This document shows, in pieces, positions 30,102 to 56,426 of a stretch of 64,000 bases of DNA. This DNA is from Eledone cirrhosa (lineage: Eukaryota). Within the stretch, counting starts at the first letter, position 1. The number at the start of each line of letters is the position of its first letter. The stretch covers positions 29,760,001 to 29,824,000 of the forward strand of contig OZ024743.1 of NCBI GenBank assembly GCA_964016885.1, written 5' to 3'. Position numbers and translations under genes: made by a program. The notes beneath the pieces were generated by a model that saw only the letters and a program-made list of their open reading frames with translations, searched no databases and was not told where the DNA came from.

Positions 30102-30104
30102 GGG

Positions 30105-30155
<51 letters not shown>

Positions 30156-30301
30156 AACACATGCATCACATAAATGATATTAAAGACACAGCTGCATACG
30201 AGGATATGTTTTCAACGGTTTGGAACACTAATGTTCCTAAATTCATTATACGTTTGAAAAATAAAAAAAATAAAAATAATAATAATAATAATAATAATAA
30301 T

Positions 30302-33300
30302 GTTTTCTTTATTAACCACAAGGGTTTACATAAAGTAGACATTAAGGACAGTACAGGACAATACAGGACGGTACAAATGGTCATTTCTGCGTGTAAAAAA
30401 AACAGAGGTTGAAATAAAATAACAAAGAAAAATTCCCCAATAGGGGGGGAGACTTCCGAGGGACATTTGTGGAGAAAGCCCATTAAAAGACCACAGTGGC
30501 CCTGACCACCAGGGCAAGTGCCCTCTCCCAGTTTTCCACCTTTAATTTACAGACACATACTCAGAGAAGGCCCATTCATTCGGGCCATACTTGCTTCTCT
30601 CACCCATCTTTCAACAAAATGCTGGGAAGAGAGCACTTCCCTCTCTACCCTGATTTTCCTTTTCAAATGAAATTTGAAAAAGTTAATTAGGGCATCACCG
30701 AAGAGGTAAGTGCTCGTCTTCAGCCCTTTCAAACGTGTCCACCATACTATCTCTTTCGCCATGGCCACCAGACAGATAAAAACTGCCTGCCCTACCCGGC
30801 TAAAGGAAGGGGGCGGGGCAATCCTCACGATGGACTCAGCTGATAGCTGGATCCGTCCTACACGTGAGAGCAGGTTTTCGACATAAACCCACAGGTCAGC
30901 AATGCTCGGACACTGGACGAGTGCGTGCAAGACGGTTTCGTCGCCCTGCGCGCATCTCGGACATGCCCGGCTGATGGCACCTCCATGCCTGTAGAGTTTA
31001 TCCCGAACTGGCAAAGCTCCTCGGTAGCACTGCCAGGCCAGGGATTTCTGGAAGTTGTCCATAGGCCCCGGCCCGAAAGTCCTTCCGAAGAGATTGGCTA
31101 GTTGATTTTCGTCGACGCCTAGAGTTTCTCCAAGTACGTCGTCGCTCTTCCCCTCCACTAATCCCCTATAGAACGCCAAGGTGGAGTTTCCACCGATCAC
31201 ATTGCCCGATTGGTCGAGGGCTGTGAGCGCCTGAAGACATTCCAGTCTCCAAGCGCTCCCTCTCGGTCTTCGCTTGACCCAGAACTGCAGCTCCGTCAAG
31301 GAGACGAGCTGGGAAAAACGTGTCTAGCAAACGGCGACCACACCTGATCACCGTCGAGGAAGAGGTGGAGATTTCGTAGCCTGAGCGCGTGTCTGCGCAT
31401 CATCAGCCACGGCATGCCCAGCCCTCCACGTAGCGGGTGTTGACAGCAGATGGACCGCCTGACCATCGGAGCGCGTCCTTTCCACAAGAAGCGAAAGAGC
31501 AGACGCTCCAGCGCAGTCAGGCGGGGCTTAGGACAAGGTACGACGGTCAGGCGGTAGTAGATGACGGATGCGATGTACGCATTCGCCACCTCCGCTCGAC
31601 CTTTCAGGGATAGCTTCCTCTCGGCCCATTTTTGGGTGAGAGAAGCCACCCTGCTCGTCACCTCGTCCCAGTTTTTGTCCGTCTGGAGGTCTGGACCGAA
31701 CCAGACCCCTAGCAATTTAGCCGGACCGTCCGTCCAGCGCACGACGACGCTGTTGGACGGCATGGACCTGCCTTTCCAGGTGCCGAGCTGCAGGCCCACT
31801 AACTTTTCCTGGTTGATCATTGCTCCTGTCACCGCTTCGTATTCTCTTAGTGTAGTGCCGATCGCCTCGATGTGTTTGGCGTTCGACACCACTACGGTGA
31901 CAACGTCGGCATATGCTGACACGGATCTTCCGCATCCTAGTTCGCGCGGGACCCCCCTCAACGTCTCCAGTTTGTGCAGTAATGGCTCGAGTGTCAATAC
32001 GTTCAATAGGGACGAGAGGGGACATCCTTGGCGGACCGAGCGCATGATGTTGAACGGTTCCGAAAGGTGACCGTTCACTCTCACTACAGAGCAGATGTCG
32101 CTGTGCATGGCAGCGATCCAGTCTCTGAAGACGGGCCCAAAGCCAGCCGCCCTCAGGACTGCCGCTAGGTAACGATGGTCGACCCTATCGAAGGCTTTCG
32201 ACTGATCTAAATTGATCAAAGACCCATCCGTGCCAGGTTCCCTAGCTACCCTCTCTACGATGTATCGCATGAGGTGGAGGTTGTCGTGGATGGATCTGTC
32301 GGGAAGGGCGCATGTCTGTGCCTCTCCCACCAGACCACCAACGACAAGCGCCAACCTCTTTGCTAGCACCTTGGCCAAAATCTTGAACTCTGTGTTTAGA
32401 AGAGTTATGGGCCTAAAATTATCTATGTTATCCCCCTTGTTCGGATCCTTTCTCAGCAGCGCCACCGCTCCTCGGCTCACAGAGCTGGGAATTCTCCCGT
32501 TCTGCTGCCAGTTGCAGTAGACGTCCGCCAAGAGGCCTCCGAACAAGTTTGGCATTTGTACTAAAGTTCATAGGGCAGACCATCCAAACCAGGCGATTTA
32601 CCCCTTGTACAACTAGTCATTGCATCCCGTACTTCAGCGGTTGTTATCGGCTTTTCGCAACACTCCGCCTCAGTGGCCGAAAGCCGCGGCAGTCCGTCGA
32701 GGTAGACACTAAAGTCCATCCCTCGATCCGGCCCGCCACTGCCCCCGAACAGTTGAGCGAAGTGTCGCTGAAAAGCTTCACACTTGCCCGGGATCGAGTA
32801 GCATGCGCCCGTCGTGGTCCACCAAAGACCGGATCGTGGCTTGGTTGCCACGACGCGCCTCCGCCACTCGGGCCCATTGAACGGCTTTCGTCCCCTCGTG
32901 TCTGAGAGCACGCACCCTAGCTCTGACAACGCAGCCTTCGTGCTTTGCATTGAAGAATTGGTCAAGGGCCAATTTCGCCGCAAGTACGTCGGTCGCGATG
33001 CCTTTGCTAAGCGCCTCATCTAATTTTCTAACTAATTCTCCCTCTGCTCTATTTTTCTCTATTGCTAAAGTCTTACTAAACATAATGGACTCTATTCTAA
33101 TTGCTCTTTTCAGAGCAAACCACCACTTGTTGTTGACGATGGCCCCCGTCAACGCCCGCTTAACTAGTTCGCTAATCCGGTCTCTGTAGGCCTTGCGCGC
33201 TGGTAAGGACGCGTTTAGCTTCCAGTAGCCGGGTCCTTGTCTATGAAGCCTATCTAAGTCAAGCACACAGATCACGAATTTGTGGTCCGTGTAGCTGACT

Positions 33301-36184
33301 ATCTTGAATTGTGGACAGCCTATGCTAGACCTATCTATTTCCCTACAAAATGCTCTATCTAGATATGATCTGGATGACCCTATGCGATTTGTCCAAGTCC
33401 ACATTGGTACATTCGGGAAATCCATTCGTTACCTGTCAGACAGTTCAAAACGTCTGAGCAGGTTGGTGAGACACTTACACCCTCCTTCCCTATCCCCTAA
33501 TCCCACACAATCCCAGCGTGCATCTAAGATCCCGTTCCAGTCGCCCACTAACACTAAAGAGCGGGACGTTCCAAGAAAGGTCTCCAGACGCCGGAAAAAA
33601 TCAGGCCGCCCTGCTCCTGTCGGGGCATAGACGGCCACTAACCTGAAAGCTTGCCCGTCTCCGCTGGTCACGTCCAGCACCACCAACTTACCCTCTGGGT
33701 CCAGGAAGATGGCCCGTATGGCAAGATCCAAACCTCTCCGAAAAAGCACAGCAACTCCTCCCCCCGATCCCGGACGGCTGGGAGATGCGTACACATCGTA
33801 GCCGCCGAAGATCGGTGCGAAAGCCTGTGCTTCGGAGATTCTGGTCTCGCTGATGGCCACTACATCTATGTTTTAGTGACCTGAGGTCGTTGAGCAGGTG
33901 GCCCTGCTTCCATGACGACCCCAAGCCACGCGCATTTATGCTGCCTATTCTGAGTGAGGTCATGTTGAAAAGGAGTGGAAAAGATGGGAAAGACCACTTA
34001 CCTTAATTCTCGTAGGGGAAGGACGGTTTTTCCATCCTTTTCACTGCTTGTGGCCTCCTCAGGAAGGATGTCCTTATAAATCCTCCTGGAGAGTGCTTGT
34101 CGGAAGTCTCCGATGTCTTTGGGGAATTTTTGTTTTAGTGTCATGTACGTTTTCTGTGTGATGCGAGTGATTTGTATGTGTGGAGGTGGTGTGAATTTTG
34201 GGGTTGTTGTGTAGTCTTTTTCTGTGATGCTGGTGTTGTGTTGGATGTAGTGTAATAATTGCTTGTTGTTCAAATTTAATGCTGTGTAGTGTGTATCGTT
34301 TTGGTTGTTTTGTTTTGTTTGCGTTTGTTGTGGGTTTGTTTCTGTTTCGCGTTTTGGTGACGTTTGTGGTGTAGGTGATGGTGGTGTTGGGGTTAATGAT
34401 GGTGATGTTGTTGGTGTTTGGGTTGATGGGGTTGGTGATGCTGGTGTGGATGGTGGCATATCTGTCCTAACTTTTTTGTTTCTTAATTTATTTGTTTCCC
34501 TCTGTATTTTGTTTTTGGAGGGGGAAGGAATAGAATTTTATCTTTTTTGGTTTCTTTTTTTTTTCCGGATATCGTTTCCCACTCCTCGTCGTCACAATCT
34601 GTCTCCAGTTGTGATAGGCCGGGGAGTGGAAAATCCTCCACAGCCTTTAGTTTTGGTTGTGGTATGGTGGATGGTGTAGGCGCTGGTGCTAGTTCTGAAG
34701 CGTTGGGTGGTGGTGGTGTTGGTTTCGCTGGTGGTGGTGTTGGTTTTGCTACTGTTGCTGGGGTTGTTGCTGTTATAGTTGCTTCTGTTGTTGCTGCTAC
34801 AGCTGTTGCTGCCATCTCTGCTACTGGTGGTGTTGATGGTTGTGTCACTGGGGTGGGTAGGAGAGGTGGCCTCAACCTTTTAGCCTGAGGGCAGAAAGCC
34901 CTTAGGTGGGTTCCTTCACCACAAACGACACACCTAGGTCTTCTGCCCTCGACAATTACCGTGAGGTGGCTGCCGTCAGTGAGGTCTATTACCTCTGGGA
35001 TCTCCTCAATGCTTTTTTGGTCCGCTTGGATCAGGAGCTCCATCGCAGATCCGGACCAGTTTTCCTGTTTTTCTTTTGCTATTGCTATTATTTTCGTGTT
35101 GGCTTCGATGCCGACGAGGACGGCCGCTATTAGCCAGGGAATTTCGATGGCCGGTGGAACGTGGGTCACCCTGATCTTTACGAGTCTCTGGCCACAATAG
35201 CTTGGGACGAGTGTGAAGTCGTCACTTTTTAATGGGGCCATGGAGTGTTCTCTAGCCTCCTCTGGTGTTTCAAAGAACACGTCCACGGTTCCATACTTTT
35301 GCCCACGTCTGATGTCGGTTTTTCTTGCCCACACATGTCCCAAAGCTTTTTGGATTTGGGACTCGGATTCCCGTTCCACTCGGCGCGATTTTACATTTAT
35401 TGTTCTATACGACACGGTGCATAGGCGCCGATGCTCCATTTTATTAGGTGGGGGGTGAGGCTGACCCTGTACCCATCTTTCTTTACCATTTGTTTGGCAT
35501 TTTCTAAATCTTCCTGAGTTACCGTAAATTTTTCGAATTGTTTTGCTACTCTGGCGAAACTGAGGGGGGGGGGGGTTATAATGTCATTGTTGTTGTTGTT
35601 GCTATCGTTAATATTAACTTTAGTTTCAGTTGTGGTGGTGGTGACGTCAGTCGTCTTTGGTGGGGAAGAGTCCATTTTGCTTGATTTCATTTCGACATCA
35701 CGAGTTAATTTATTTTTTTCTTCTTTTGTTTCTGTTGTCGCGGTGGTGGTGGGTGTGGTGGTTGTCGCGGTGGTGGTGGAGGCTTTAACACCTGCAGTCA
35801 TTGGTAATGGCGGGAAATGAATGTCTGCCTGAGACAAATTTAAAATATTGCTACTGCTTATATTTTTTTTTGTGTTGGCAAACGTAGTAACATTTACAAT
35901 GGTGGTGTCGGTGTGAGGTGTTATTTTGTGAGGAAGGCTTTCAGCTGCTTCGTGCAGAGGTGAAGTAGCCATCTTTTTTTTAAAGAAATTTTTGGATAAT
36001 AATAAAAGTTAAAATTTTGGGCACAAGGCCCCAATCTTTTTGGGTGTCCTTTTCGGAAAACAATGTATGTGTGCTTATAAACAGTTAACAATAAAATTTT
36101 CCATAAATGGCAATTTTTAACAAACGGAAATAACAAACCTTTGCGGAGCTCACGATGATACGATTTACTACGTAGGTCGCCAAA
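30302..36184 (-). mobile_element. Full-length Tx1/L1-clade LINE (family T1), copy 1
   Basis: ORF1 (35972-33998, broken) has a CCHC knuckle CVVCGEGTHLRAFC. ORF2 (33963-30547, broken) has APE (SINARGL, ISET, GDWN, SYLDR, YTDH), RT (FRPITLLN, DQSKAFDRV, RQGCPLS, YADV) and C-terminal CPRC...H...C. Ends AATAAAGAAA. (AAT)n at both ends. Confidence 0.95.
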
Positions 36185-36218
<34 letters not shown>

Positions 36219-36802
36219 GCCCGACTCACTATAAGGGCTGGAGACATGATGTGATGGGCAGGGTGATCCACTGGCACCTATGCAAAGTAAACAATTTATC
36301 ACATTCTGAGAAGTGGTATGAGCATAAGCCATAGGCGGTGATAGAAAACGATCAGGTGAAGGTGCTGTGGGATTTTAGGATACAGACGTACAAGAAACTG
36401 GAACACAATAGACCTGGCCTGGTGGTTGTGGACAAAGAAAAAAGATCGTGCCTGATTCTGGATGTGGCCTGCCCATTCGACACGAGAGTGCAAGAGAAGG
36501 AGAGGGAGAAAAATTAACCGATACCAGGACTTAAAGTGGGAGGTAAAAATCATTTAGAACTGCCATGAAGTCAAAGTGATCCCGATTGTCATAGGCGCAC
36601 TAGGGACTATCTCAAAAAGTTTCCCGGGATGGTTAAAAAAATTGGCCCCTTCACGCTTTTTGGAACGCTTCAAAGGGCATGCTTGCTGGGAACAGCAATA
36701 ACGCTCCGATACGTCCTGAATATGTGAGTCTGCAGGTAGTGGCTTGATATTCCTTTCAACAAACTTTCCAGTTAACTAACATCAATGACTGAGACTCAAA
36801 GA
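36219..36802 (+). mobile_element. R4/Dong-like RLE LINE family A, 3' fragment
   Basis: RHD...WDF...RP.LVV...DVACPFD restriction-like endonuclease region plus family A 3' UTR. Confidence 0.9.
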
Positions 36803-36804
36803 GT

Positions 36805-37296
36805 GCATCCAAACAGACCGAAAGATAGATGCAAACAGACCTGATATAATATTGAAAGACTTTCAAAAGAGGGTATGCCTGCTAATTGATATGTCTGTTC
36901 CAATAGACAAGAATGTATGTATAAAAACATTCGAAAAATTGTGCAAGTATAAGGACCTGGAGATAGAAATTGGAAAAATGTGGAAATTGAGAACTAAAAC
37001 AATACCAGTGGTTGTAGGCGCTCTGAGAATGATACCTAAGGGGTCTAATGATTAATTATCGCAAATCCCAGGAAACCCGCGTATAGGAGAAATACAAAAG
37101 ATAGTACTAATGGGAACTGCCCATATACTAAGGAAGATTCTGTCAATATAAGTACAGCACCAGTCTAAACACTAAAGATGCATGTGTGAATATGTATGTT
37201 CTTTCTTGAACATGGCGGACCTTGTTGTCTCTTGAGGTCACTGGTTGTGACTTGGTGATAACTCGTATGAACATAAAGCAAGATAAATGCAACTGT
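36805..37296 (+). mobile_element. R4/Dong-like RLE LINE family B, 3' fragment
   Basis: QTDRKIDANRPD...IDMSVP...KYKDL, with family B 3' UTR ending GCAACTGT(AAT)n. Confidence 0.9.
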
Positions 37297-37318
37297 AATA
37301 ATAATAATAATAATAATA

Positions 37319-38165
37319 GGATACAAGTATTTGGGCGTTCTGGAGGCTGATGACATCAAGAACAAAAAAATGAAGGAATTGACAAGACTGAATACCTTCG
37401 GAGAGTAAGGAGCGTATTGAAGTCACAGTAGGAATGCCATAAGTGCAGTAAATTCTCGAGCTGTGTCTATTATTAGGTACAGTGCGGGAATTCTGAGATG
37501 GAATGTTGCTGAACAAAAATAAATGGATAGAAAGACTAGGAAGCTATTGATTATCTACAATATTGTCCACAAGAGGGGTGATGTCGATAGACTCTACTTA
37601 ATGAGATCTGAGGGTGGAAGAGGTCTTATCAGCATAGAGGACTGTGTTCAGATGGAGAAAAACAACCTACACAAATACGTGACCTATAGTAAGGAGCCAA
37701 TGCTCAGAATTGTACTGAAGGAGGGGACAATAGGCCAGGGGATGTCCAAGGAGGAAATAACATCAAGGAGAAAGAGCAGCCTTCAGGAAAAATCCCTGCA
37801 TAGTACCTTCTTTGAGAAAACTGAATTTAGAGATCCACAGACATGGAACTGGTTGAAAAGAGGAGACCTTAAAAAGGCTACAGAAGGAACGTTAATTGCA
37901 GCGCAGGAGCAGGCCCTCAAAACGAAGTGGTTGAAACACCACATTTACAAGGAGGAGGCTAGCCCACTGTGCAGGATCTGTGGAGAGAGAGAGGAGACTG
38001 TGGCTCACATTGTATCCGAGTGTAAACGCCTAGCCCAGACTCACTATAAGGGCTGGAGACATGATGTGATGGGCAGGGTGATCCACTGGCACCTATGCAA
38101 AGTAAACAATTTACCACATTCGGAGAAGTGGTATGGGCATAAGCCAGAGGCGGTGATAGAAAACG
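37319..38165 (+). mobile_element. R4/Dong-like family A, internal fragment truncated at both ends
   Basis: YKYLG...EGGRGL...AAQEQAL...CRIC...H...C...RHD; similarity stops abruptly at 38165. Confidence 0.9.
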
Positions 38166-38893
38166 CACGTGGTGGATTATAGTGTTATGGAATCGCTCCC
38201 GTAAGTTTTTGATTTTTACATATTTAAAACAACTGTCATACAATAATTCTTATTACAAATGAAACAGAAGATTACAGTTTTGACTCTCAGCAAGCGACGA
38301 CACATCACATTATGATATAGGGCCCTAATATTTAATATTTAATTTTGGATCAGACATGTTTTAGGCAAAAAGAGGAAAATCGCTACGTGGACGGACAGGC
38401 AAACAATTTCACCACCATCACCACCACGCCACCATCACCACTACCACGCAAAAAAATCCAGCCAAGCCAACTGTTACTTCAACTTCTATTTCTACTTCAA
38501 CTTAAACACCATCACTACAGTACTACGACCACATCACCACCACCACCTCTGCCTCTTTATCGCTACCACCACTATTCTCTCCCACTATCTCCTGCTAAGA
38601 CAGAGGGATCGTATTATTGCCACTAAGTGAGAAAGGTAGCAAAAGATATAAATAGGTTGATGCGATGACCCGGTCAAAAAATAAAAAAATAAAAAATCAA
38701 AATCAAAACAGCACACCAGCAACGAAAAACGTAAAGAAAAAGAAAAAAGAAAAGAAAAACAAACAAACAAACGAAAAACTAAGTCAGACATTCAAACATT
38801 ACTTTACAGTGAAACTTAAACTTATGCTTATTTTTTAAAAAGTTTTTACCTATTTATTTCTTTATTTGTTTATTTATTTATGTTCGTTTACAG

Positions 38894-41800
38894 CTGATAG
38901 TGCCATGCTAAAATCAGCGGGGTGATCAAATCACTGGGGATGATTAAATCACCGGTGGTTATGTAACCATAGATTCACCAATCCTCGATATGAGTGTTTA
39001 AATGTCGAACCTAAACAGTTCGAATAACGGTGAAGTGGAGACTGGAATGTCATGTGACAGACTCTCACCCAACAGGTGCTCCCTGGCTCAGCAGCAGGGA
39101 CCTGGCTGTCAACCAAATATTGCTGGTGTTGGAGGAAGAAGAAGAAGGAACGGGACCAGAACCATCTGGACGAAAGAATTGAATAGAACTGTTATCCAAT
39201 GTTACCTGAAGAGTAACCTCAAGGAAAAAGGCTTTAGGAAACGGATGCATAGCATCTGGAACGAGATTGGTCTTTTTAAATTAGATGAACAAAAATTGGT
39301 CGGGCAGGCTCGGGTAATAAGAACTAATGGGTGGATAAGCGAGCTGGAATTGGAGGAACTCAGCAGAGAGATTAGATTGGAAATGGAGAGAAGAGTATGC
39401 CAGGCAAACGAGCCAGTGGGAAATGAAGGTGAAGAGGTTGAGAGAACGGAGGAAGCATCCGAAACAGATAATGATCTGAATGCTGAAATAAATGATACCT
39501 GGAACAAAGATACGGCAATTGAGGAAATGAATGCTGACGGGGTAGGACAAGATTTGGTTCATATCCTAAACTTAGTGGTAGATGAAATGAACAATGATAG
39601 TGGGAAACCTATGAACCTAAGGTGTGTAGACCGGAAAAAGTTAAAAGAAACAAAAGCTAAGGTAAACAAAGTCATCCCATACCTTAAGGCGAAGAACTTT
39701 CACCAGTGCAACAATATCCTCAAAGCAACAGCAAATGCGGTGAGGAAATTACTTGTCATAAAAGCGAAAGGAAACAACAAACAAGAAAGGCCAGAACCTT
39801 CGTAGAAGAAACGACTGAATGGTCAAATCAGGGAAATGAGAAATGATATTGGAAAACTTGAGTCCCTACTAAATGGGACACTACAAGACATAGACACTGA
39901 AATAGACTGGAAATACAGTACAAAACTAGGAGGAAAAAGCCAAATATTATCGTAGAGGAAATGAAGCAACGCATTGTAGCAAAGAGCGCAAAGATTAGGC
40001 GATACGAGAGCAGAGTCAGTCAGTATAGACAGAACCGCATGTTTGAAAACAACCAGAAGATGTTGTTTGGACAGTTTGAAGGGAAAGAAAGAGGCAACGA
40101 GGTGATCCCTGAGGCGGAACAAACTAAGACATTCTGGAGAGGAATATGGGAGCAGGATTTTGAACGTAATGATCAGGCAGTGTGGATTGAGACAGTACAA
40201 AAGGAGATTAGTTAACAGGCACACCAACAAACTGATTTGAGTTTCACAGTTGAAACTCTTAAGGGGCAGGCCAGAAAACTAACCAACTGGAAATCACCAG
40301 GCCCAGATGGTTTGCAGGGGTATTGGATTATAAATATAATATCCCTCCACCCGAAACTGACAACCATGTTCAATGACTGCTTCATGTCAGGTGAGGTACC
40401 AGAGTGGTTGACAAAAGGTACCACAGTTCTGGTAATGAAAGACCGAACCAAGGGTAATGATGGTACCAACTATAGACCTATCACATGCCTGACCGTAATG
40501 TGGAGACTGTTAACAAGCATTGTGTCTGAGGAAATCTACCATCACCTCCACATAAACAACCTGTTACCGGAAGAAACAGAAAGGATGCTGAAAGAAGTCC
40601 CGTGGTACAAAGGACCAGTTACTTATTGATAAGATGGTAATGAGGAATTGCAGGAGGAGACACACTGGTGTTGCCATGGGATGGATAGACTACAAAAAGG
40701 CATTCGACATGGTACCTCATTATTGGATAACCAAAAGCCTAGAGATCTTCAGGGAGGCAGATAATATCAGACAGTTATTGAGCAAAAGTATGAAGTCCTG
40801 GAAAACAGAGTTAACATCGGGCAGATAATCCTTGGGAGGCGTGAAGATCAAGAGAGGTATCTTCCAGGGAGATAGTCTGTCTCCTCTGTTGTTTGTCCTT
40901 GCCCTGATGCCCCTGACCATTATACTGCGAAAAGTGAGAGCAGGATACAAGTTTACAAGTTGGGAAAGGGAGAAATTACCATCAATCACCACCTCTTCAT
41001 GGACGATCTTAAGCTCTTCGGGAAGAGTGAGAAAGAGTTGGATGTGCTTGTTGACACTGTCCGTATTTTCAGCAAAGATATATGTATGCAATTTGGTATT
41101 AGTAAGTGTGGAGTCCTTGTGATGCAGAGGGGAAAATTGAGCAGAAGCAAATGAATGTAGGTATCAACAGGTGAGATGATAAAGGAAATTGATACTGAAG
41201 AGGGATGCAAATATATAGGTGTTCTGGAGGTTGATGACATCAAGAACAAAAAATGAAGGAATTGATAAGATCTGAATACATTCGGAGAGTAAGGAGCGTA
41301 TTAAAGTCACATCTGAACAGTAGGAATGCCATAAGTGCAGTACATTCCCCATCTGTCTCTATTATTAAGTACAGTGCGGGAATTCTGAGAGAGAATGTTG
41401 CTGAACACAAAGAAATGGATAGGAAGACTAGGAAGCTATTGACTATCTACAACATGTTCTACAAGAAGAGTGATGTCGATAGACTCTACTTAAGGAGATC
41501 TGAAGTTGGAAGAGGTCTTATCAGCATAGAAGACTGTGTTCAGAGGAGAAAATCAACCTACACAAATACGTCACTGATGGTAATGAGCCAATGCTCAGAA
41601 TTGTACTGAAGGAGATGACAATAGACCAGGGGATGTCCAAGGAGTAAATAACAACAAGGAGAAAGAGCAACCTTAATAAATAATCCCTTCGTAGTACGTT
41701 CTTTGAGAAAACTGAATTTAGAGATCCACAGACATGGAACTGGTTGAAAAGAGGAGACCTTAAAAAGGCTACAGAAGGAATGCTAATGGCTGCGCAAGAG

Positions 41801-42307
41801 CAGGCCCTCAAAACGAAGTGACTGAAACACAATATTTACAAGGAGGAAGCTAGCCCAATGCGTAGGATCTGTGGAGAGAGAGAGAGGAGACTGTGGCTTA
41901 CATTGTATCCGAGTGTGAACACCTAGCCCAGACTCACTATAAAAGCTGGAGGCATGATGTGATGGGCAGGGTGATCCACTGGCACCTATGCAAAGTAAAC
42001 AATTTACCACATTCTGAGAAGTGGTATGAGCATAAGCCAGAGTCGGTGATGGAAAACGATCAGGTGAAGGTCCTGTGGGATTTTAGGATAGAGACGGACA
42101 AGAAACTGGAACAAAATAGACCTGACCTGGTGGTTTTTGACAAAAGGAGAAAGATCGTGCCTGATTGTGCATGTAGCCTGCCCATTCGCCACGTGAACAG
42201 CAAGAACCCTCCGATACGTCCTGAATATCTGAGGCTGCAGGTAGTGGCTTGATATTCATTTCAACAAAATTTCCAGTTAAATAACATCAATGACTGAGAC
42301 TCAAAGA
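38894..42307 (+). mobile_element. R4/Dong-like family A, near full-length decayed copy
   Basis: Single broken ORF from 39002: N-terminal WTKELN...CY, then [48 protein letters not shown] and RLE. Deletion near 42195. Confidence 0.9.
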
Positions 42308-42318
42308 ACAATAATAAT

Positions 42319-42361
<43 letters not shown>

Positions 42362-43920: not shown

Positions 43921-43950
43921 AATAACAATAACAATAATAATAATAATAAT

Positions 43951-46900
43951 TTCTTTATTAACCACAAGAGTTTACATAAAGCAGATATTAAGGAGAGTAC
44001 AGGACAATACAGGGCGGTACAAATGGGCATTTCTGCGTGTAAAAAAAACAAGAAACAGAGGATGAAATAATAGAACAATGAATAAAATTCCCCAATAGGG
44101 GGAGCCTTCCGAGGGACATTTGTGGAGAAAGCCCATTAAAAAGCCACAGTGACCTTGACCACCAGGGCAAGTGCCCTCTCCCAGTTTTCCACCTTTAATT
44201 TACAGACACATACTCAGAGTAGGACCATTCACTCGGGCCATTCTTGCCTCTCTCACCCATCGTTCAACAAAATGCTGGGAAGAGAGTACTTCCCTTTCTA
44301 CACTGATTTTCCTTTTCAAATGAAATTTGAAAAAGTTAATAAGGGCATCACCGAAGAGTAAATGCTCGTCTTCAGCCCTTTCAAACGTGTCCACCATACT
44401 ATCTCGTTCGCCATGGCCACCAGACAGATAAAAACTGCCTGCCCTTCCCGGCTGAAGGAAGAGGGCGGGGCAATCCTCACGATGGACTCAGCTGATAGCT
44501 GGATCCACACCTGATCCCCGTCGAGGAAGAGGTGGAGATGTCATAGCCTGAGCGCGTGTCTGCGCATCATCAGCCACGACATTCCCAGCCCTCCACGTAG
44601 CGGGTGTTGACAGCAGTTGGATCCCCTGACCATCTGAGCGCGTCCCTTCCACCAAAAGAGAAAGAGCAAACGCTCCAGGGCAGTCAGGCGGGGCTTAGGA
44701 CAAGGTACCACGGTCAGGCGGTAGTAGATGACGGACGGGATATACGCGTTAGCCAACAACGCTCGCCCTTTCAGGGATAGCTTCCTCTCCGCCCATTTCT
44801 GGGTGAGAGAAGCCACCCTGCTCGTCACTTCGTCCCAGTTTTTGTCCGTCTGGAGATCGGGACCGAACCAGACCCCGAGCAATTTAACCGGTCCGTCGGT
44901 CCAGCGCCAGTCGACGCTGTTGGACGGCATGGACCTGCCTCTCCAGGTGGCGAGCTGCAGGCTCACTGACTTTTCCTGGTTGATCATTGCTCCTGTCACC
45001 GCTTCGTATTGTTTTAGTGTAGTGCCGATCGCCTCGATATGTTTGGCGTTCGACACCACTACGGTGACATCGTCCCCATATGCTGACACGGATCTTCCTC
45101 ATCCTAGTTCGCGCGGGGCCCCCTCAACGTCTCCAGTTTGTGCAGTAATGGCTGGAGAGTCAATACGTACAATAGGGACGAGAGGGGACATCCTTGGCGG
45201 ACCGAGCTCATGATGTTGAACGGTTCCGAAAGGTGACCGATCACTCTCACCACAGAGCAGATGTCGCTGTGCATAGCAGCGATCCAGTCTCTGAAGACGG
45301 GCCCAAAGCCAGCCGCCCTCGACTGCCGCTAGGTAACGATCGTCGACCCTATCGAAAGCTTTCGACTGATCTAAATTGATCAAGGACCCACCCGTGCCAG
45401 GTTCCCTAGCTACCCTCTCTACGATGTATCACATGAGTTGGAGGTTGTCGTGGATGGATCTGTCGGGAATGGCGCATGTCTGCGCCTCTCCCACCAGACC
45501 ACCAACGACAAGCACCAACCACTTTGCTAGCACCTTGGCCAAAATCTTGAGCTCTGTGTTTAGCAGAGTTATGGGACTAAAATTATCTATGTTATCCCCC
45601 TTGTTCGGATCCTTTCTCAGCCCGGCCACAGCTCCTGGGCTCACAGAGCTGGGAATTCTCCCGTTCTGTTGCCAGTTGCAGTAGACATCCGCCAAGAGGC
45701 CTCCGAACAAGTCTGGCATCTGTACGTAAAGTTCATAGGGCAGACCATCCAAACCAGGCGATTTAACCCTTGTGCAGCTAGCCATTGCCTCCGTACTTCA
45801 GCGGTTGTTATCGGCTTTTCGCAACACTCCGCATCAGTGGCCGAGAGCCGCGGCAGTCCGTCGAGGTAGACACTAAAGTTCATCGCTCGATCCGGCCCGC
45901 CATTTCCCCCGAACAACTGAGTGAAGTGTCGCTTATAAGCTTAACACATTTGCCCGGGATCGAGTAGCATGCGCCCGTCCTGGTCTACCAATGACCGGAT
46001 CGTGGCTTTGTTGCCACGACGCGCCTCCGTCACTCGGGCCCATTGAACGGCTTTCGTCCCCTCGTGTCTGAGAGCACGCACCCTAGCTCTGACAACGGAG
46101 CCTTCGTGCTTTGTATTGAAAAATTGGTCAAGGGCCAATTTCGCCGCAATTACGTCGGTCGCGATGCCTTTGCTAAGCGCCTCGTCTAATGTTCTAACTA
46201 ATTCTCCTTCTGCTCTATTTTCCTCTATTGCTAAAGCCTTAATAAACCTAATGGACTCTATTCTAATTGCTCTTTTCAGAGCAAACCACCACCTGTTGTT
46301 GACGATGGCCCCCCTCAACGCCCGCTTAACTAGTTCGCTAATCCGGTCTTTGTAGGACTTGCGCGCTGGTAAGGACACGTTTAGCTTCCAGTAGCCGGGT
46401 CCTCGTCTATGAAGCCTATCTAATTCAAGCACACATATCACGAATTAGTCGTCCGTGTAGCTGACTATCTTGAATTGTGGACACCCTATGCTAGACCTAT
46501 CTATTTCTCTACAAAATACTCTTTCTAGATATGATCTGGATGACCCTATGCGATTTGTCCAAGTCCACATTGGCACATTAGGGAAATCCAATCGGTACCT
46601 GTCAGACAGTTCAAAATGCCTGAGCAGGTTGGTGAGGTTCTTGCACCCTCCTCCCCTATCCTCTAATCCCACACAGTCCCAGCGTGCATCTAAGATCCCG
46701 TTCCAGTAGCCCACTAACACTAAAGAGCGGGACGTTCCAAGAAAGGTCTCCAGACGCCGGAAGAAATCAGGCCGCCCTGCTCCTGTCGGGACATAGACGG
46801 CCACTAACCTGAAAGCTTAGCCGTCTCCGCTGGTCACGTCTACCACCACCAAGTTACCTTCTGGGTTCAGGAAGATGGCACGTATTGCAAGATCCAAACC

Positions 46901-49274
46901 TCTCCGAAAAACACGGCAACTCCACCTCCCAATCTCGGACGGCTGCGAGATGCGTACACATCGTAGCCGCCGAAGATCGGTGCCAAGGCCCATGCTTCTG
47001 AGATACTGGTCTCGCTGATGGCCACTACATCTATGTTTAGTGACCTGAGGTCGTTGAGTAGGTGGCCCTGCATCCATGACGACCCCAAGCCACGCGCATT
47101 TATGCTGCCTATTCTGAGTGAGGTCATGTTGAAAAGGAGTGGAAAAGATGGGAAAGACCACTTACCTTAATTCTCGTAGGGGAAGGACGGTTTTTCCATC
47201 CTTTTCACTGCTTGTGGCCTCCTCAGGAAGGATGTCCTTATAAATCCTCCTGGAGAGTGTTTGTCGGAAGTCACCAATGTCTTTGGGGAATTTTTGTTTT
47301 AGTGTCGTGTAGGTTTTCTGTGTGATGCGAGTGATTATTATGTGTGGAGGTGGTGTGAACATTTGGCTTGTTGTGTAGTCTTTTTCTCTGATGAAGGTGT
47401 TGTGTTGCATGTAGTGTAATAATTGGTTCTTGTTCAAATTTAATGCTGCGTAGTGTGTATCGTTTTGGTTGTTTTGTTTCGTTTGCGTTTGTTGTGGGTT
47501 TGTTTGTTACGCTTTTTGGTGACTTTTGTTGTGTTGAGAATCGTGGTGTTGGGGTTAACGATGGTGATGGTGTTGGTATTTGTGGTGATGGGGTTGGTGA
47601 TGCTGGTGTGGATGGTGGCATATCTGTCCTAACTTTTTTGTTTGATAATTTATTTATTTCCCTCTGTATTTTGTTTTTGGAGGGTGAAGGAAGATAATTT
47701 ATTCTTTTTTGGTTTCTTTTTTTTCTATTTTCCTGATACCGTTTCCCACTCGTCGTCACAATCTGTCTCCAGTTTCGATAAGCGGGAGAGTGGAAAATCC
47801 CCCACAGGCGTTGGTTTTGGTAGTTGCGTGGTGGATGTGTAGGCGCTGGTGCTAGTTCTGGCACGTTGGGTGGTGGAGGTGTTGGTTTTGCTATTGTTGC
47901 TGGGGTTGTGGCTGTTACAGTTGCTTCTGTTGTTGCTGCTACAGTTGTTGCTGCCAGTTCTGCTGCTGGTGGTGGTGATGGTTGAGTCACTGGGGTGGGT
48001 AGGAGAGGTGGCCTCAACCTTTTAGCCTTAGGGCAGAAAGCCCTTAGGTGGGTTCCTTCACCACAAACGACACACCTAGGTTCTGTCCTCGACGATTACG
48101 GTGAGGGGCTGCCGTTAGTGAGGTCTATGACCTCTGGGAACTCCTCAATGCTTTTATGGTCCGCTTGGATCAGGAGCTCCATCCCAGATCCGGACCAGTT
48201 CTCCTGCTTTTCTTTCGCTATTTCAATTATTTTGGTGTAGGCCTCGATGCCGGCGAGGACGGCAGCCATTAGCCAGGGAATTTCGATGGCTGGTGGTACG
48301 CGGGTCACCCTTATCTTCACAAGTCTCTGGCCACAATAGCTTGGGACGAGTGTGAAGTCGTCACTTCTTAATGGGGCCGTGGAGTGTTCTCTGGCCTCCT
48401 GTGGTGTTTCAAAGAACACGTCCACGGTTTCATATTTCTGCCCACGTCTGATGTGTTTTTTTTGCCCACACATGTCCCAAAGCCTTTTGGATTTGGGACT
48501 CGGATGCCCGTTCGAGTCGGCGCGATTTTATGTTAATTGTCCGATAAGACACGGTGCATAGGCGACGTTGCTCCATTTTATTAGCTGGGAGGGGGGGGGG
48601 GCTGACCCTGTACCCATCTTTCTCTACCATTCCTCCTGAGTTACCTGGATAGCGTCGCACGTTTTTGCTACTCTCGCAAAACTCAGGGTAGTTTTCTTAA
48701 TTTCATTGTTGCTGTTGGTGTTATCGTTATGTTTGCTATTGTTAATTTTAGTTTCAGTTGTGGTGGTGGTGGCGTCAGTGGTGTTCGGTGTGGAAGAGTT
48801 CATTTTGGTTGAATACATTTCGATATCACGAGTTAATTAATTTTTTTCTTTTGTTTCTGTTGTCGCTGTGGTGGTGGTGGGGTGGCGGCTTTAACACCTG
48901 CAGTTATTGGTAATGGCGAGAAATGAACGTCTTCCTGAGACAAATTAAACATATTGCTACTGCTTACATTTCCAGTGTTGGCAAACGTAGCAATATTTAC
49001 AATGGTGGTGTCGGTGTGAGGTGTTAGTTTGTGAGGAAGGAGTGACACAGAGTCATCCATGATTTTTCAAAGAAAGATTTTTGTTTGATAATTATAAAAA
49101 GTTTAAATTTTGGGCTCAAGGCCCCAATCTTTTTGAGTGTCATTTTCAGAAATCGATGTATGTGCAGTTATATACAGTTAACATTAAAAATTTCCATAAA
49201 TGGTAATTTTAAACAACTGAAAATAACAAACCTTTGCGGAGCTCACGATGATATAATTTACTACGTAGGACGCC
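43951..49274 (-). mobile_element. Tx1/L1-clade LINE family T1, copy 2 (full-length, about 480-bp deletion near 44507)
   Basis: Colinear with copy 1 and has the same termini. (AAT)n on both sides. Confidence 0.95.
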
Positions 49275-49286
49275 AATAATAATAAT

Positions 49287-49334
<48 letters not shown>

Positions 49335-49335
49335 T

Positions 49336-49760
49336 AGGATACAGACGGACAAAAAACTGGAACACAATAGACCTGACCTGGTGGTTGTGGACAAAGAAAA
49401 AAGATCGTGTCTGATTGTGGATGTGGCCTGCCCGTTCGACACGAGAGTGCAAGAGAAGGAGAGGGAGAAAATTAACCGATACCAGGACCTAAAGTGGGAG
49501 GTGAAAAGGATTTGGAACTGCCATGAAGTCAAAGTGATCCCGATTGTCATAGGCGCACTGGGGACTATCTCCAAAAGTTTCCAGGGATGGTTAAAGAAAA
49601 TTGGCCCCTTCACGCTTTTTGGAACGCTTCAAAAGGCATGCTTGCTTGGAACAGCAAGAACCCTCCGATACGTCCTGAATATCTGAGGCTGCAGGTAGTG
49701 GCTTGATATTCAATCCAATGGACTTTCCAGTTAACCAACATCAATGACTGAGATTCAAGG
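49336..49760 (+). mobile_element. R4/Dong-like family A, 3' fragment
   Basis: Nearly identical to 43496-43920 (a handful of substitutions). Confidence 0.95.
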
Positions 49761-49791
49761 AATAACAACAATAATAATAATAATAATAATA

Positions 49792-52444
49792 GATTCTATA
49801 TGGACAATAATATGTTCAAAAACAACCAAAGAAACTTCTACAGAAAAATTGGTAAGTTAACAATAACTGCTAAATCAATATCACCCAAGGAGGAAGTGCA
49901 AGAATTCTGGGAAAAGATCTGGGCCGAAGAAAAAGTTCATAACATACATGCCCCATGGATAGACAGATAAATGAAAGATACAGCTCACCTTGAGGAACAA
50001 ATATGGGAAAATATAACAGTTGAACAGTTGCGCTTGGCTCTAAGAAAAACCAGCAAATGGAAATCCCCAGGAAAAGACAAAATACAAAACTTTTGGATAA
50101 ATGTCTCATGAGCTGTTAGCCCAACTTTACAATGAAATAGTTAAGGAGCCAGAAAAGATACCATCATGGCTAGTTAACGGCATTACATTCCTGCTTCCGA
50201 AGAATGATGAGACAAACAAGCCCAAAAATTACAGACCGATAACTTGCTTAACCACAATGTATAAACTGTTAACATCAGTCCTAACTGAATACACATATGA
50301 CCACCTGATAACAAATGACCTATTTCCCATTGAGCAGAAAGGGTGTAAACGAGGCTCATATGGCTGTAAGGATCAGCTTCTGGTTAACAAAATGATACTG
50401 GAAGATTGTCATAATAGACACAAAAATCTATCGATTGCTTGGATAGATTATAAAAAAGCATTCGATAGTTTGCCACACAGTTGGATTGAAAAATGTTTAG
50501 AGATTTTCAAAATATCCCCCGTTGTCAGGAGGTTTTGTCATTCAGTATGAAGACATGGAAAACGACACTCCTTTTGAATAGTGAAACAAAATCACTGGAA
50601 GCTGGAGAAGTTAATATTAATTGTGGAATTTTTCAGGGTGACTCTTTAGCACCGCTTTTATTCTGCATCGCACTTATACCATTAAGTAAAATGCTCAATG
50701 AAACAAAACATGGATATAAAGTCTATGACAAAACCATTAATCACCTGTTCTACATGGATGACCCGAAACTATTTGCAAAAAAATGATGAACAATTGCAAG
50801 GGCTATTATCCACTGTGGAGCAGTTCAATGATGACATTAAAATGGAGTTTGGACTAGATAAATGCGCCAAAGCAACGTTCACCAGAGGAAAGCTGCTGAA
50901 GAGTTCAGACATTAATCTTGATCGGGGGAATGTGATAAGAGAACTTGATAAAAAAAACTTACAAATATCTAGGTGTTTGTGAAGGAGACGGAATCAAGCA
51001 CTCGACAATGAGGGAAAGGATAAGGAAGGAATGTTACCGCAGAGTAAGAGCAATCTTAAGAACGGAATTGAATGCAAGGAATAGGATCGATGCCATAAAC
51101 ACGCTTGCCATACCAGTAGTAACCTACAGTTACAATGTCATCAACTGGTCAAGCACAGAGATCCGTAGGCTCGATACAAAAATTCAAAAATTCTTAACCA
51201 TGCACAGAATGCATCACCCTAAGGCTGATATAGATAGAATATATCTCCCTAGGAAAGAAGGAGGACGTGGGTTAATCCAGTTAGACATTGCGTTGAAAAC
51301 TGCAACAATTGGATTATCTACATATCTAAGGGAATCACATGATTGGAGGATCAAACTCGTTTTGAAACACGAAAGCATCAAAAGATCATATTCCATTACA
51401 AAAGATGCACAAAGATACAGTAATGGACTACAAATTTCAGAAGTCCCATTTACTGCTGAAATGGAAAACAGAAAAAAGCAAAGCAGGTAAAAGTAACTGC
51501 AAAGAAAGAACTGCTACAGAAACTGGCTAAGAAATGGCAAGAAAAGCCTCTGCATGGAAAATACCCAGAGAGAGCTAACAATCCTGATGTTGACAAAACT
51601 TTAACCCATCAGTGGTTGGCATCCTCTGGACTGAAATCGGAGACTGAAGGACTGATTATATCAGCACAAGATCAGTGTCTGCCAACAAAAAATTACCAAG
51701 CCAACATAATAAAGAATGGATACAGCCCATTATGCCGTGTATGCAAAAAACAACCAGAGACCATTGACCATATAATTTCAATGTGCAGTCCTATAGCTCC
51801 AACCGAATACCTAAACAGGCATGACAGAGCTGCACAATAATTACATTGGATAATGTGTAAGCATTTTGACCTGCCCCATCAAAAGAATTGGTGGGAGCAT
51901 CAACCACCTCCCATACTTGAAAAAGATCACATCTCAATCTTGTGGAACTTTAGCATCCAAACAGACCGAAAAATAGATGCAAATAGACCTGATATATTAT
52001 TGAAGGACTTTAAAAAGAGGGTATGCCTGCTAATTGATATGTCTGTTCCAATAGACAAGAATGTATCTATAAAAACATTTGAAAAATTGAGCAAGTATAA
52101 GGACCTGGAGATAGAAATTGGAAAAATGTGGAAATTGAGAACTAAAACAATACCAGTGGTTGTAGGTGCTCTGGGAATGATACCTAAAGGGTCTAATGAT
52201 TACTTATCGCAGATCCCAGGAAACTCGCGTATAGGAGAAATACAAAAGATAGTACTAATGGAAACTGTCCATATACTAAGGAAGATTCTGTCAATATAAG
52301 TACATCACAAGTCTAAACATTAAAGATGCATGTGTGAGTATGTATGTTCTTCCTTGAACATGGCGGACCTTGTTGTCTCTTGAGGTCACTGGTTGTGACT
52401 TGGTGATAACTTGTATGAACATAAAGCAAGATAAATGCAACTGT
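49792..52444 (+). mobile_element. R4/Dong-like family B, 5'-truncated copy
   Basis: [42 protein letters not shown]...H...C, RHD, RPD...IDMSVP. Confidence 0.95.
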
Positions 52445-52480
52445 AATAATAATAATAATAATAATAATAATTATTATTAT

Positions 52481-54606
52481 TATTTCCCATTGAGCAGAAA
52501 GGGTGTAAACGAGGCTCATATGGCTGTAAGGATCAGCTTTTGGTTAACAAAATAATACTGGAAAATTGTCATAATAGACACAAAAATCTATCAAAATTCT
52601 TGGATAGATTATAAAAAAGCATTCGATAGTTTGCCACACAGTTGGATTGAAAAATGTTTAGAGATTTTCAAAATATCTCCCGTTGTCAGGAGGTTTTTGT
52701 CATTCAGTATGAAGACATGGAAAACGACTCTCCTTTTGAATAGTGAAACAAAATCACTGGAAGCTGGAGAAGTTAATATTAATTGTGGAATTTTTCAGGG
52801 TGACTCGTTATCACCGCTTTTATACTGCATCGCACTTATACCATTAAGTAAAATGCTCAATGAAACAAAACATGGATATAAAGTCTATGACAAAACCATT
52901 AATCACTTGTTCTACATGGATGACCTGAAACTATTTGCAAAAAATGATGAACAATTGCAAGGGCTATTATCCACTGTGGGGCGGTTCAGTGATGACATTA
53001 AAATGGAGTTTGGACTAGATAAATGCGCCAAAGCAACGTTCACCAGAGGAAAGCTGCTGAAGAGTTCAGACATTAATCTTGATCGGGGGAATGTGATAAG
53101 AGAATTTGATTAAGAAAAATCTCACAAATATCTAGGTGTTTGTGAAGGAGACGGAATCAAGCACTCGACAATGAGGGAAAGGATAAGGAAGGAATGTTAC
53201 CGCAGAGTAAGAGCAATCTTAAGAACGGAATTGAATGCAAGGAATAGGATCGATGCCATAAAAACGCTTGCCATACCAGTAGTAACCTAAAGTTACAATG
53301 TCATCAACTGGTCAAGCACAGAGATCCATAGGCTCGATACAAAAATTCGAAAATTCTTAACCATGCACAGGATGCATCGCCCTAAGGCAGATAGAGATGG
53401 AATATATCTCCCTGGGAAAGAAGGAGGACGTAGGGTAATCCAGTTAGACATTGCGTTGAAAACTGCAACAATTGGATTATCTACATATCTAAGGGAATCA
53501 CATGATTGGATGATCAAACTCGTTTTGAAACACGAAAGCATCAAAAGATCATACTCCATTACAAAAGATGCACAAAGATACAGTAATGGACTACACATTC
53601 CAGAAGTCCCATTAACTGCTGAAATGGAAAACAGAAAAAAGCAAAGCAGGTAAAAGTAACTGCAAAGAAAGAACTGCTACAGAAACTGGCTAAGAAATGG
53701 CAAGAAAAGCTTCTGTATGGAAAATACCCAGAACGAGCTAACAATCCTGATGTTGACAACACTTTAACCCATCAGTGGTTGGCATCCTCTGGACTGAAAT
53801 CGGAGACTGAAGGACTGATTATATCAGCACAAGATCAGTGTCTGCCAACAAAAAATTACCAAGCCAACATAATAAAAAATGGATACAGCCCATTATGCCG
53901 TGTATGTAAAATACAACCAGAAACCATTGACCATATAATTTCAATGTGCAGTCCTATAACTCCAACCGTATACCTAAACAGGCATGACAGAGCTACACAA
54001 TACATACATTGGATAATGTGTAAGCATATTGACCTGCCCCATCAAAAGAATTGGTGGGAGCATCAACCACCTCCCATACTTGAAAAAGATCACATCTCAA
54101 TCTTGTGGAACTTTAGCATCCAAACAGAAGGAAAAATAGATGCAAATGACCTGATATAATACTGAAGGACTTTAAAAAGAGGGTATGCCTGCTAATTGAT
54201 ATTCCGTTCCAATAGACAAGAATGTATCTATAAAAACATTTGAAAAATTGAGCAAGTATAAGGACCTGGAGATAGAAATTTGAAAAATGTGGAAATTGAG
54301 AACTAAAACAATACCAGTGGTTGTAGGCGCTCTAGGAATGATACCTAATGGGTCTAATGATTAGTTATCGCAAATCCCAGGAAACCCGCGTATAGGAGAA
54401 ATACAAAAGATAGTACTAATGGGAACTGCCCATATACTAAGGAAGATTATGTCAATATAAGTACATCACAAGTCTAAACACTTAAAGATGCATGTGTGAG
54501 TATGTATGTTCTTCCTTGAACATGGCGGACCTTGTTGTCTCTTGAGGTCACTGGTTGTGACTTGGTGATAACTCGTATGAATATAAAGCAAGATAAATGC
54601 AACTGT
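52481..54606 (+). mobile_element. R4/Dong-like family B, second 5'-truncated copy
   Basis: Colinear with 50321-52444. Confidence 0.95.
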
Positions 54607-54622
54607 AATAATAATAATAATA

Positions 54623-55063
54623 GGAAGGTGCTATGGGATTGTAGGATAGAGACAAGAAATTATAACACAATAGGTCTGACCTGGTGGTTTTGGACAAGGA
54701 AACAAATCGTGTCTGAATGTAGATGTAGCCTATCCATTTGACACGAGAGCGCAAGAAGAGGAGAGGGAGAAAAGTAACCGATACCAGGATTTGAAGTGGG
54801 AATGAAAAAGGATTTGGAACTGTCATGAAATCAAGGTCTTCCCGATTGTCATAGGTGCACTAGGTACTATCTCAAAGAGTTTTCAAGGATGGTTAAAAAA
54901 GATTAGTCCAACCCCACTTTTTCGAACACTTCAAAAGGCATGCTTGCTGGGAACAGCAAGAGCCCTCCGATACGTCCTGAATATCTGAGGCTGCCGGTAG
55001 TGGCTTGATATTCATTTCAACAAACTTTCCAGTTAAATAACATCAATGATTGAGACTCAAAAA
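54623..55063 (+). mobile_element. R4/Dong-like family A, older 3' fragment
   Basis: Diverged RLE region plus family A 3' UTR, between (AAT)n tracts. Confidence 0.85.
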
Positions 55064-55065
55064 AC

Positions 55066-55101
<36 letters not shown>

Positions 55102-55103
<2 letters not shown>

Positions 55104-55881
55104 TTTCTTTATTAAACACAAGGGTTTACATAAAGTAGAGATTAAGGAGAGTGCAGGAAAATACAGGACGATACAATGGGCATTTCTGCGTGTAAAACCA
55201 AAAACAGAGGATGTAACAAAAAAAATAACAATGAAAAATTCCCCAATAGGGGGGAGACTTCGGAGGGACATTTGTGGAGAAAGCCGATTAAAAGGCCACA
55301 GTGACCTTGACCACCAGGGCAAGTGCCCTCTCCCAGTTTTCCACCTTTAATTTACAGACGCATATTCAGAGTAGGCCCATTACTCGGGCCATTCTTGCTT
55401 CTCTCACCCATCTTTCAACAAAATGCTGGGAAGAGAGTACTTCCCTCTCTACCCTGATTTTCCTTTTCAAATGAAATTTGAAAAAGTTAATAAGGGCATC
55501 ACCGAAGAAGTAAATGCTCGTCTTCAGCCCTTTCAAACGTGTCCACCATACTATCTCGTTCGCCATAGCCACCAGACAGATAAAAACTGCCTGCCCTTCC
55601 CGGCTAAAGGAAGAGGGCGGGGCAATCCTCACGATGGACTCAGCTGATAGCCGGATTCGTCCTACACGCGACAGCAGGTGTTCGACATAAACCCACAAGT
55701 CAGCAATGCTTGGACACTGGACGAGTGCGTGCAGGACGGTTTCGTCGCCCAGCGCGCATTTTGGACATGCCTGGCTGACGGCACCTCCATGCCTGTAGAG
55801 TTTATCCCGAACTGGCAAGGCAGTAGCACTGCCAGGCCAGGGATTTCTGGAAGTTGTCCATAGGCCCCGGCCCGAAAGTTC
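55102..55881 (-). mobile_element. Tx1/L1-clade family T1, 5'-truncated copy 3
   Basis: Matches 30302-31080. (AAT)n at its 3' end and a short ATAATAATAA at its 5' junction. Confidence 0.9.
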
Positions 55882-56426
55882 TATAATAATAAAAATTATA
55901 TATATATACATTCTTTCTAATATATATGACATCATTTTCATGTTGTTAAGGAAACAAATGTGTGTACAGTGCAGTGCCTCACATCCATGCGCATTGGTGA
56001 ATTATCGTGTGCATGCTGCACATGCCATTTGCTGTTTGGGAGCCAGCGTTTTAGCTGGTGTACGGCGTAGCCGTTGCGGTTGATTTTGTCTGACACTGCT
56101 TTGTAGGAAGGTCTGGTGATAAGGCCCCTTGTTCTTACCCCGTGTTCTTGCCAGCAAGCACTTTTAATTAAATTTGGTAGGCAAAATATTACGTGGATCG
56201 AGACCAAAATATTCTTATCCCGGTGAAAATGTTCTGATCGTTATCCCCCTGTTCGTTCTATGTCCATATGATATGCTCCAAAGCTAATTTTCACACCTCC
56301 CACACTGTTGTGCAACAGCTTCATAGGAAGCAGTATTGATATTTCACGTTGACCTCAGTAACTATGTCACCAAATCGATTTAAATCCCCCCCTCTCTCTC
56401 TCACTCTCTCTCTCTCTCTTTCCCTC

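Follow-up and report, generated by a model that had tools for sequence, protein, structure and literature searches.

Can two classes of long interspersed nuclear element (LINE) with different endonucleases settle in one and the same simple repeat, each in its own orientation? The question is raised by a 25.6-kb train of LINE pieces in Eledone cirrhosa, lying at 30.3-55.9 kb of the 64,000-nucleotide stretch analysed here, which we call the window (assembly GCA_964016885.1, contig OZ024743.1, positions 29,760,001 to 29,824,000). Self-comparison and family-wise BLAST delimit the train at 30302-55882 and resolve it into 12 pieces. Three are copies of T1, a Tx1-like family with an apurinic/apyrimidinic endonuclease-like domain (APE), and lie on the minus strand; nine belong to two families with a restriction-like endonuclease (RLE), A (six pieces, A1 to A6) and B (three pieces, B1 to B3), and lie on the plus strand. 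Our analysis indicates that T1 is associated with (ATT)n, as read on the sense strand of T1, and that (ATT)n is probably an undescribed target for a Tx1-like family, shared in opposite polarity with Dong-like elements. Repeat targeting and the sharing of one repeat in opposite directions are already known in principle.

One repeat, two orientations

The initial annotation, made from the sequence alone, had described 12 pieces lying end to end with every RLE piece on plus and every T1 copy on minus, and self-comparison and BLAST confirmed both the count and the polarity. Under coin-flip insertion, the observed orientation pattern has a probability of 5e-4. Strict polarity is nevertheless less surprising than the annotation implied, as it is automatic for any strand-specific targeting element. 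The further claim that (AAT)n separates nearly all pieces stood for nine of the 11 internal junctions, which bear AAT linkers of 15-60 bp, and failed at the A1|B1 and A2|A3 junctions. AAT runs of at least five units are concentrated in the train, with 10 inside its 25.6 kb versus 0 in the remaining 38.4 kb of the window, which is AT-rich, microsatellite-rich animal DNA; ATT runs of the same minimum length occur once inside and once outside. Elsewhere in the 64-kb window, no further pieces of A, B or T1 turned up. All 12 pieces are broken, none keeping a whole reverse-transcriptase (RT) open reading frame (ORF), and no stop-free frame in the train exceeds 423 aa.

The arrangement of the linkers bears on whether the repeat is a tail of the elements or their target. 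Two linkers (36182-36217 and 49275-49334) are head to head, each lying between a T1 5′ end and a 5′-truncated A piece, and from that position they can be the tail of neither neighbour. Linkers make up 317 of the 13,596 non-T1 bases, and both internal T1 copies sit inside linkers, a placement with a chance of about 5e-4. Taken together, the head-to-head linkers, the AAT remnant at the truncated end of T1c and the placement of T1 indicate that the repeat is a target, or at least the pairing partner of T1. All T1 ends in the window adjoin AAT (3/3 at the 3′ side and 3/3 at the 5′ side, one of the latter over only 10 bp). All three 3′ ends pass from AATAAAGAA into (ATT)n, starting in phase with ATT (clear in two of the three copies), while the 5′ junctions end in ATT.

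T1 junctions beyond the window

Read evidence came from four of the 24 listed runs, X1, X4, X6 and X24. X24 consists of raw restriction site-associated DNA (RAD) reads from a sample and a study other than those of the assembly, and X1 may be the assembly's own sample. At the T1 5′ end, X24 depth goes from 984.8 at 36180-84 to 913.5 at 36195-96, such that 93% continues through the repeat. Measured from 36165-69, 88% continues through AAT, with ordinary decay inside T1 corresponding to 96% per 30 bp. At position 36184, which has 131 read starts, 963 of 969 reads carry T, revealing that the family junction, GCC|AATAATAAT, occurs in one phase and that the window copy is mutated there. At least eight sites near the T1 5′ end vary in 20-55% of reads, suggesting that many T1 copies contribute. 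Among the mismatch rows listed, which were all but four, one (35/949 reads) falls within the repeat, and this argues that non-AAT flanks were not forced onto it.

The T1 5′ junction with AAT was also present in 48 contigs of X1 (156,586 of 156,625 in depth), in two of X4 (organism label B) and in one of X6 (organism label D). One X1 contig has T1 cut at 36159 and then AAT. The tie between T1 and AAT thus extends outside the window, where the 5′ junction was checked, with contigs under three organism labels in agreement with the X24 depth. A Tx1 family has been regarded as microsatellite-specific when one repeat type makes up more than 20% of its flanks (PMC4494074). For T1 the corresponding figure is 88-93% of the 5′ read depth, counted in reads, and 3/3 for the 3′ ends in the window. 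Family A 3′ ends are likewise represented in X24: among the best-supported of more than 11,000 loose-end rows, three, with 82,094, 73,062 and 15,629 reads, lead from the element into AAC/AAT repeats.

Pieces of the train

Read from the left, the train is preceded by an outer flank made of an A-rich run and (AAT)9 (30260-30301, plus), which forms the 3′ flank of T1a and has no adjoining RLE element. T1a (30302-36181, minus) is a full-length Tx1-like LINE with AATAAA just before its 3′ end and a 5′ terminus fixed by the reads. On the other side of the first head-to-head linker (annotated on plus) lie A1 (36218-36802, plus), a 3′ fragment of family A, and B1 (36805-37296, plus), a 3′ fragment of family B followed by (AAT)7. 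A2 (37318-38165, plus) is an internal fragment of family A that begins with AGGATACA and has lost its 3′ end. A spacer without strand assignment or any other match in the window follows (38166 to about 38880, roughly 700 bp, its right boundary being approximate); it contains CAC-rich, A-rich and TATT-rich runs, and may be the 5′ region of A3 or host DNA. A3 (38880-42309, plus; 5′ boundary approximate) is a near full-length family A element comprising the N-terminal region, RT, CCHC motifs and the RLE minus about 200 bp.

The second half of the train begins with A4 (42361-43922, plus), a 5′-truncated family A piece that starts with AGGATACA and retains the end of the RT, the CCHC motifs and the RLE. 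T1b (43951-49274, minus) keeps both ends but has an internal deletion of about 480 bp, and is bordered by AAT linkers of 28 and 60 bp. A5 (49335-49762, plus) is an RLE-domain fragment that begins with (T)AGGATACA and is 98.4% identical to the end of A4. Two 5′-truncated family B pieces come next: B2 (49791-52444, plus), with RT, CCHC motifs and RLE, and B3 (52481-54606, plus), 96.4% identical to B2, with (AAT)9 and then an inverted (ATT)5 ahead of it. The switch from (AAT)9 to (ATT)5 occurs in the linker at 52445-52484, directly before B3, whose start has four bases in common with the inverted part. A6 (54622-55065, plus) is the most diverged family A fragment, at 83-85% to A1, A4 and A5. The last piece, T1c (55102-55882, minus), comprises the 3′ 780 bp of T1, with (AAT)12 on its 3′ side and, at its truncated 5′ side, a 10-bp AAT remnant that is all there is of a right outer flank.

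T1 is Tx1-like and families A and B carry a restriction-like endonuclease

In the Pfam search, T1a ORF2 matched Exo_endo_phos (E 4e-9), RVT_1 (2e-25) and zf-RVT (1e-8), in a frame interrupted by stops and frameshifts. The APE catalytic motifs are retained in T1; the APE fragment of T1a alone had no meaningful match in the PDB. The T1 RT is nearer to L1 ORF2p (E 1e-30) than to R2 (6e-14), and its best named relative, from Argonauta hians, shares 71% identity, with cuttlefish proteins lower in the list, a ranking that points to a probable octopod host. A CCHC knuckle of the form CX2CX4HX4C is present in ORF1 of T1a, T1b and T2, a second Tx1-like family described below, and T1 ORF1 had no Pfam match to RRM or Transposase_22. 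A Type I ORF1 with a CCHC zinc knuckle fits the Tx1 clade (PMC5203782), and the domain set and L1-like RT of T1 appear to fit the Tx1 branch of the L1 group. Searches for T1 ends or relatives returned none in viral contigs; in metagenomes 0 of 173 candidates were confirmed and a second scan gave 0 matches; and in prokaryotic genomes one weak locus among 29 candidates was seen and not used. In run X6, depth over T1 ORF2 is about 1000 times that over most of ORF1 and the 5′ end, suggesting that related families share ORF2 and differ in ORF1.

The RLE domain of A and B has the form PD-(D/E)xK, a motif we take to be R4-like, with P13, D14, D29, K41 and E44 conserved in at least 90% of 70 sequences. 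Its profile matches the R2 RLE (E 2e-4 to 8e-4), and the top three fold matches of its structure model (predicted local distance difference test, pLDDT, 88.9) are R2. The motif, profile and predicted fold of A and B, set beside the Pfam identification of the T1 APE, bear out the initial annotation's claim of two unrelated endonuclease types. C-terminal CCHC motifs are present in both RLE families. The B RT matches R2 at 4e-9 versus L1 at 3e-3, and the A RT matches R2 at 2e-6 versus L1 at 3e-4, the A4 ORF alone being without a match. A and B share about 40% of amino acids in the RT-to-CCHC region. HERO elements are also found in cephalopods and some HERO families target microsatellites (PMC4640811, PMC10294476); A and B likely belong to the R4 clade rather than to HERO.

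On the sense strand, (TAA)n follows the 3′ end in seven of the eight A and B pieces that retain one, and an AAT linker lies upstream of the 5′ end in seven of nine. By these flanks, A and B appear to work like Dong. A ribozyme has been described for Dong (PMC3774820); in the train, in which no A or B 5′ end is secure, Rfam detected no hepatitis delta virus (HDV)-like ribozyme. The Rfam matches were microsatellite-driven and scored below gathering thresholds, with one weak chance match in the train.

Growth of the train

We consider it likely that the train grew by repeated independent target-primed insertions, in the course of which each class would have nicked its own strand of the same repeat. 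In target-primed reverse transcription, the primer is the strand complementary to the 3′ flank. By this established chemistry, the primer for A and B would be the ATT strand and the primer for T1 the AAT strand. To judge by the phase of its junctions, T1 probably nicks each strand at a TpA step, first AAT|AAT and then ATT|ATT. With such a step available on either strand, pairing of the RNA 3′ end may help to determine polarity. Each insertion would leave repeat on both sides, through the split target together with a tail or a duplication, such that landing sites would rise with every insertion and the array would lengthen without elements cutting into one another. Such an array may serve as a safe harbour, as the initial annotation proposed, and could be a source of piRNAs.

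Comparison of the pieces supports independent insertion over a range of ages. All 5′ breakpoints differ, and identities in the longer pairwise matches span 83-98%. When the A4|T1b junction is set against A6|T1c, the two A parts mismatch at 70 of 442 sites, compared with 27 of 560 for the two T1 parts (p 5e-9), a discordance that argues against duplication of a block. The three B pieces resemble one another to much the same degree (94.9-96.4%). Two nested arrangements were considered and rejected: A2 and A6 as one split copy (mismatches to A4 of 48/856 versus 70/442, p 5e-9) and A2 and A5 as one split copy (48/856 versus 7/428, p 6e-4).

Several points weigh against growth by independent target-primed insertion. 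Nicking of the repeat by T1's own endonuclease is an inference; untemplated bases could blur the T1 3′ phase, and target-site duplications are unmeasurable inside a microsatellite. Two of the 11 junctions lack AAT (A1|B1, at 36802/36805, and A2|A3, with the spacer of about 700 bp), and the presumed 5′ end of A3 is preceded by a TATT-rich run rather than AAT. Given the loss of the A2 3′ end and the spacer, the train may be two runs. A4 and A5, which flank T1b, could represent one local duplication; two young insertions fit as well, since their tail form is the commonest in the reads. RAD reads represent only those copies that lie close to a restriction site, and their numbers are not numbers of loci; the T1 3′ flank and the B flanks are resolved in the window alone. 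Finally, no contig among those listed bridges the train, and the order of its pieces rests on the assembly.

The main rival holds that RNA, rather than the endonuclease, directs T1 to its target: read-through transcripts with AUU repeats at both ends would pair with the repeat, and the nicks would be weakly specific or made by the RLE elements. The uniform T1 5′ phase in the reads (963/969) is what copying of the upstream repeat from RNA should produce. RNA-target pairing has been proposed for SART1 (PMC7265360), and L1-type endonucleases have been described as responding to the flexibility of DNA more than to its sequence (PMC1950540). However, truncated copies without the RNA 5′ end still adjoin AAT (T1c, over 10 bp, and one X1 contig), and T1 has kept its APE catalytic motifs. 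We regard this explanation as improbable; it would alter the mechanism and not the target, and may coexist with endonuclease specificity.

Less probable still is a passive pile-up, in which insertion was untargeted, the AAT runs are mere 3′ tails and the intervening DNA was deleted later. A and B do end in AAT, and deletions have occurred here, as the lost A2 3′ end and the one remaining spacer attest, but head-to-head linkers cannot be tails, the orientation is non-random (5e-4), and no A or B body is split by T1 (p about 5e-4). The T1 5′ read junctions, about nine in ten of which lead into AAT, already largely refute it. A segmental duplication or assembly artefact, the danger that the initial annotation had named, is hardly credible: no contig among those listed spans the train and some identities are high (98.4% for A4/A5, 96.4% for B2/B3), but the 83-98% range of identities, the different 5′ breakpoints, the discordant divergence across matching junctions (p 5e-9) and the near-equal likeness of the three B pieces (94.9-96.4%) speak against it, and element-repeat junctions recur both in independent reads and in data bearing other organism labels.

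Relation to known systems

An APE element and an RLE element sharing one repeated locus are known from R1 and R2 in 28S ribosomal DNA. These two occupy separate nearby sites in the gene rather than the two strands of a single microsatellite, and neither restores the target of the other. Closer parallels exist for each class found here. Dong elements lie in TAA repeats, including DongBg of the snail Biomphalaria, and the Tx1 families Kibi and Koshi lie in (TC)n and (TTC)n, respectively; the targets given in the initial annotation agree with the published account (PMC3812793). In Bombyx Dong, (TAA)n precedes the 5′ end on the sense strand, as a published primer sequence shows (PMC3774820). Like Bombyx Dong, DongAg and DongBg, A and B are RLE elements in a TAA microsatellite with the same sense-strand polarity. 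Unlike Dong, the two families have linkers in common, both between themselves and with an APE element. In Octopus vulgaris, Dong-R4 elements are abundant and show recent activity (PMC13282606), and both Dong-R4 and L1-Tx1 are abundant in cephalopods (PMC13282606, PMC8967140, PMC10294476).

Crocodilian Tx1 families are found in (TTCC)n/(TTTC)n (PMC4494074). T1 resembles these families, Kibi and Koshi in being a Tx1-like APE element in a microsatellite, and differs from them in its target, (ATT)n, and its cephalopod host, with the caveat that the strand convention of the published repeat units may not be the sense strand. The initial annotation knew of no described (TTA)n-specific Tx1 family, and we likewise found no (ATT)n- or (TTA)n-targeting Tx1 family in the literature covered, which did not include Repbase and most subscription papers. 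A precedent for the sharing itself comes from SART1 and TRAS1 of Bombyx mori, which insert into one repeat, (TTAGG)n, in opposite directions (PMC7265360). There, too, two LINE families occupy one simple repeat in opposite directions, but both are APE elements in a telomeric repeat, whereas the repeat shared in the train is an interstitial trinucleotide, and its occupants are of an RLE class and an APE class. The TRAS1 endonuclease cuts between T and A (PMC7265360), and L1 cuts TTTT/AA (PMC1950540).

A second Tx1-like family and the breakpoints of family A

Outside the train lies T2 (56898-62100, plus; 5′ boundary approximate), the second Tx1-like family, in which about 610 bp of the RT core is missing. 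Its ORF2 is about 68% identical to that of T1 at the nucleotide level. Its flanks (region 56796-62130) are not AAT: (TATC)22 lies upstream at 56796-56883 and TATC/TA repeats lie downstream. The T2 APE matches the L1 endonuclease at about 1e-4. In the predicted hairpin-loop region, which we position by presumed analogy to the L1 endonuclease, T2 has TNHSGQSRSYLD where T1a has TNRIGSSRSYLD. The corresponding loop of the L1 endonuclease affects target choice (PMC1950540). From this one copy, T2 is a candidate for a different microsatellite target.

The breakpoints of family A show a pattern of their own. The 8-mer AGGATACA occurs at three family A positions (donor sites 42613, 40942 and 43496) and starts the pieces at 37318, 42361 and 49336, such that A2, A4 and A5 each begin at one of these positions. 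Under uniform breakpoints, the post hoc chance of this is 4e-8 to 4e-7. A possible explanation is that the template slips from a 5′ end beginning with the motif, or that the RNA is cleaved or spliced at AG. A1, A6 and B2 likewise begin with AG directly after the repeat.

With the train, (ATT)n joins the repeats targeted by Tx1-like elements. T1 and T2, about 68% alike and set in different repeats, form a natural pair for studying how the target of an APE endonuclease changes, and the sharing of one repeat by RLE and APE elements may partly explain why octopus genomes are rich in LINEs and microsatellites. A broader scenario, which we offer as speculation and think unlikely, is that octopod Tx1 elements radiated over microsatellites by endonuclease change (T1 in (ATT)n, T2 in (TATC)n/(TA)n), that APE and RLE elements now nick (AAT)n at one and the same TpA step, each on the opposite strand to the other, and that each restores the target of the other, that self-lengthening traps of this kind occur genome-wide and could seed silencing loci, and that family A shortens by sequence-directed jumps to AGGATACA.

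Other repeats in the window

Two dispersed repeats make up the left flank of the train (29599-30260). Inverted copies of them lie at 28140-28648 and 21801-21986, respectively, and the second repeat is cut at the start of the train. The continuation of this cut repeat, of which 21801-21986 is the fuller copy, was not found to the right of the train, and the empty site is thus not reconstructable. Further to the left, a 34-bp tandem array occurs twice in inverted orientation (27393-27646 and 26514-26732), and a hairpin of about 200 bp with AAT/ATT arms lies at 27680-27880. The inverted arrays and the hairpin are probably non-autonomous DNA transposons. Near the left end of the window, about 4.4 kb (1087-5528) is made up of nested direct and inverted copies with 89-92% identity, in a foldback-like arrangement.

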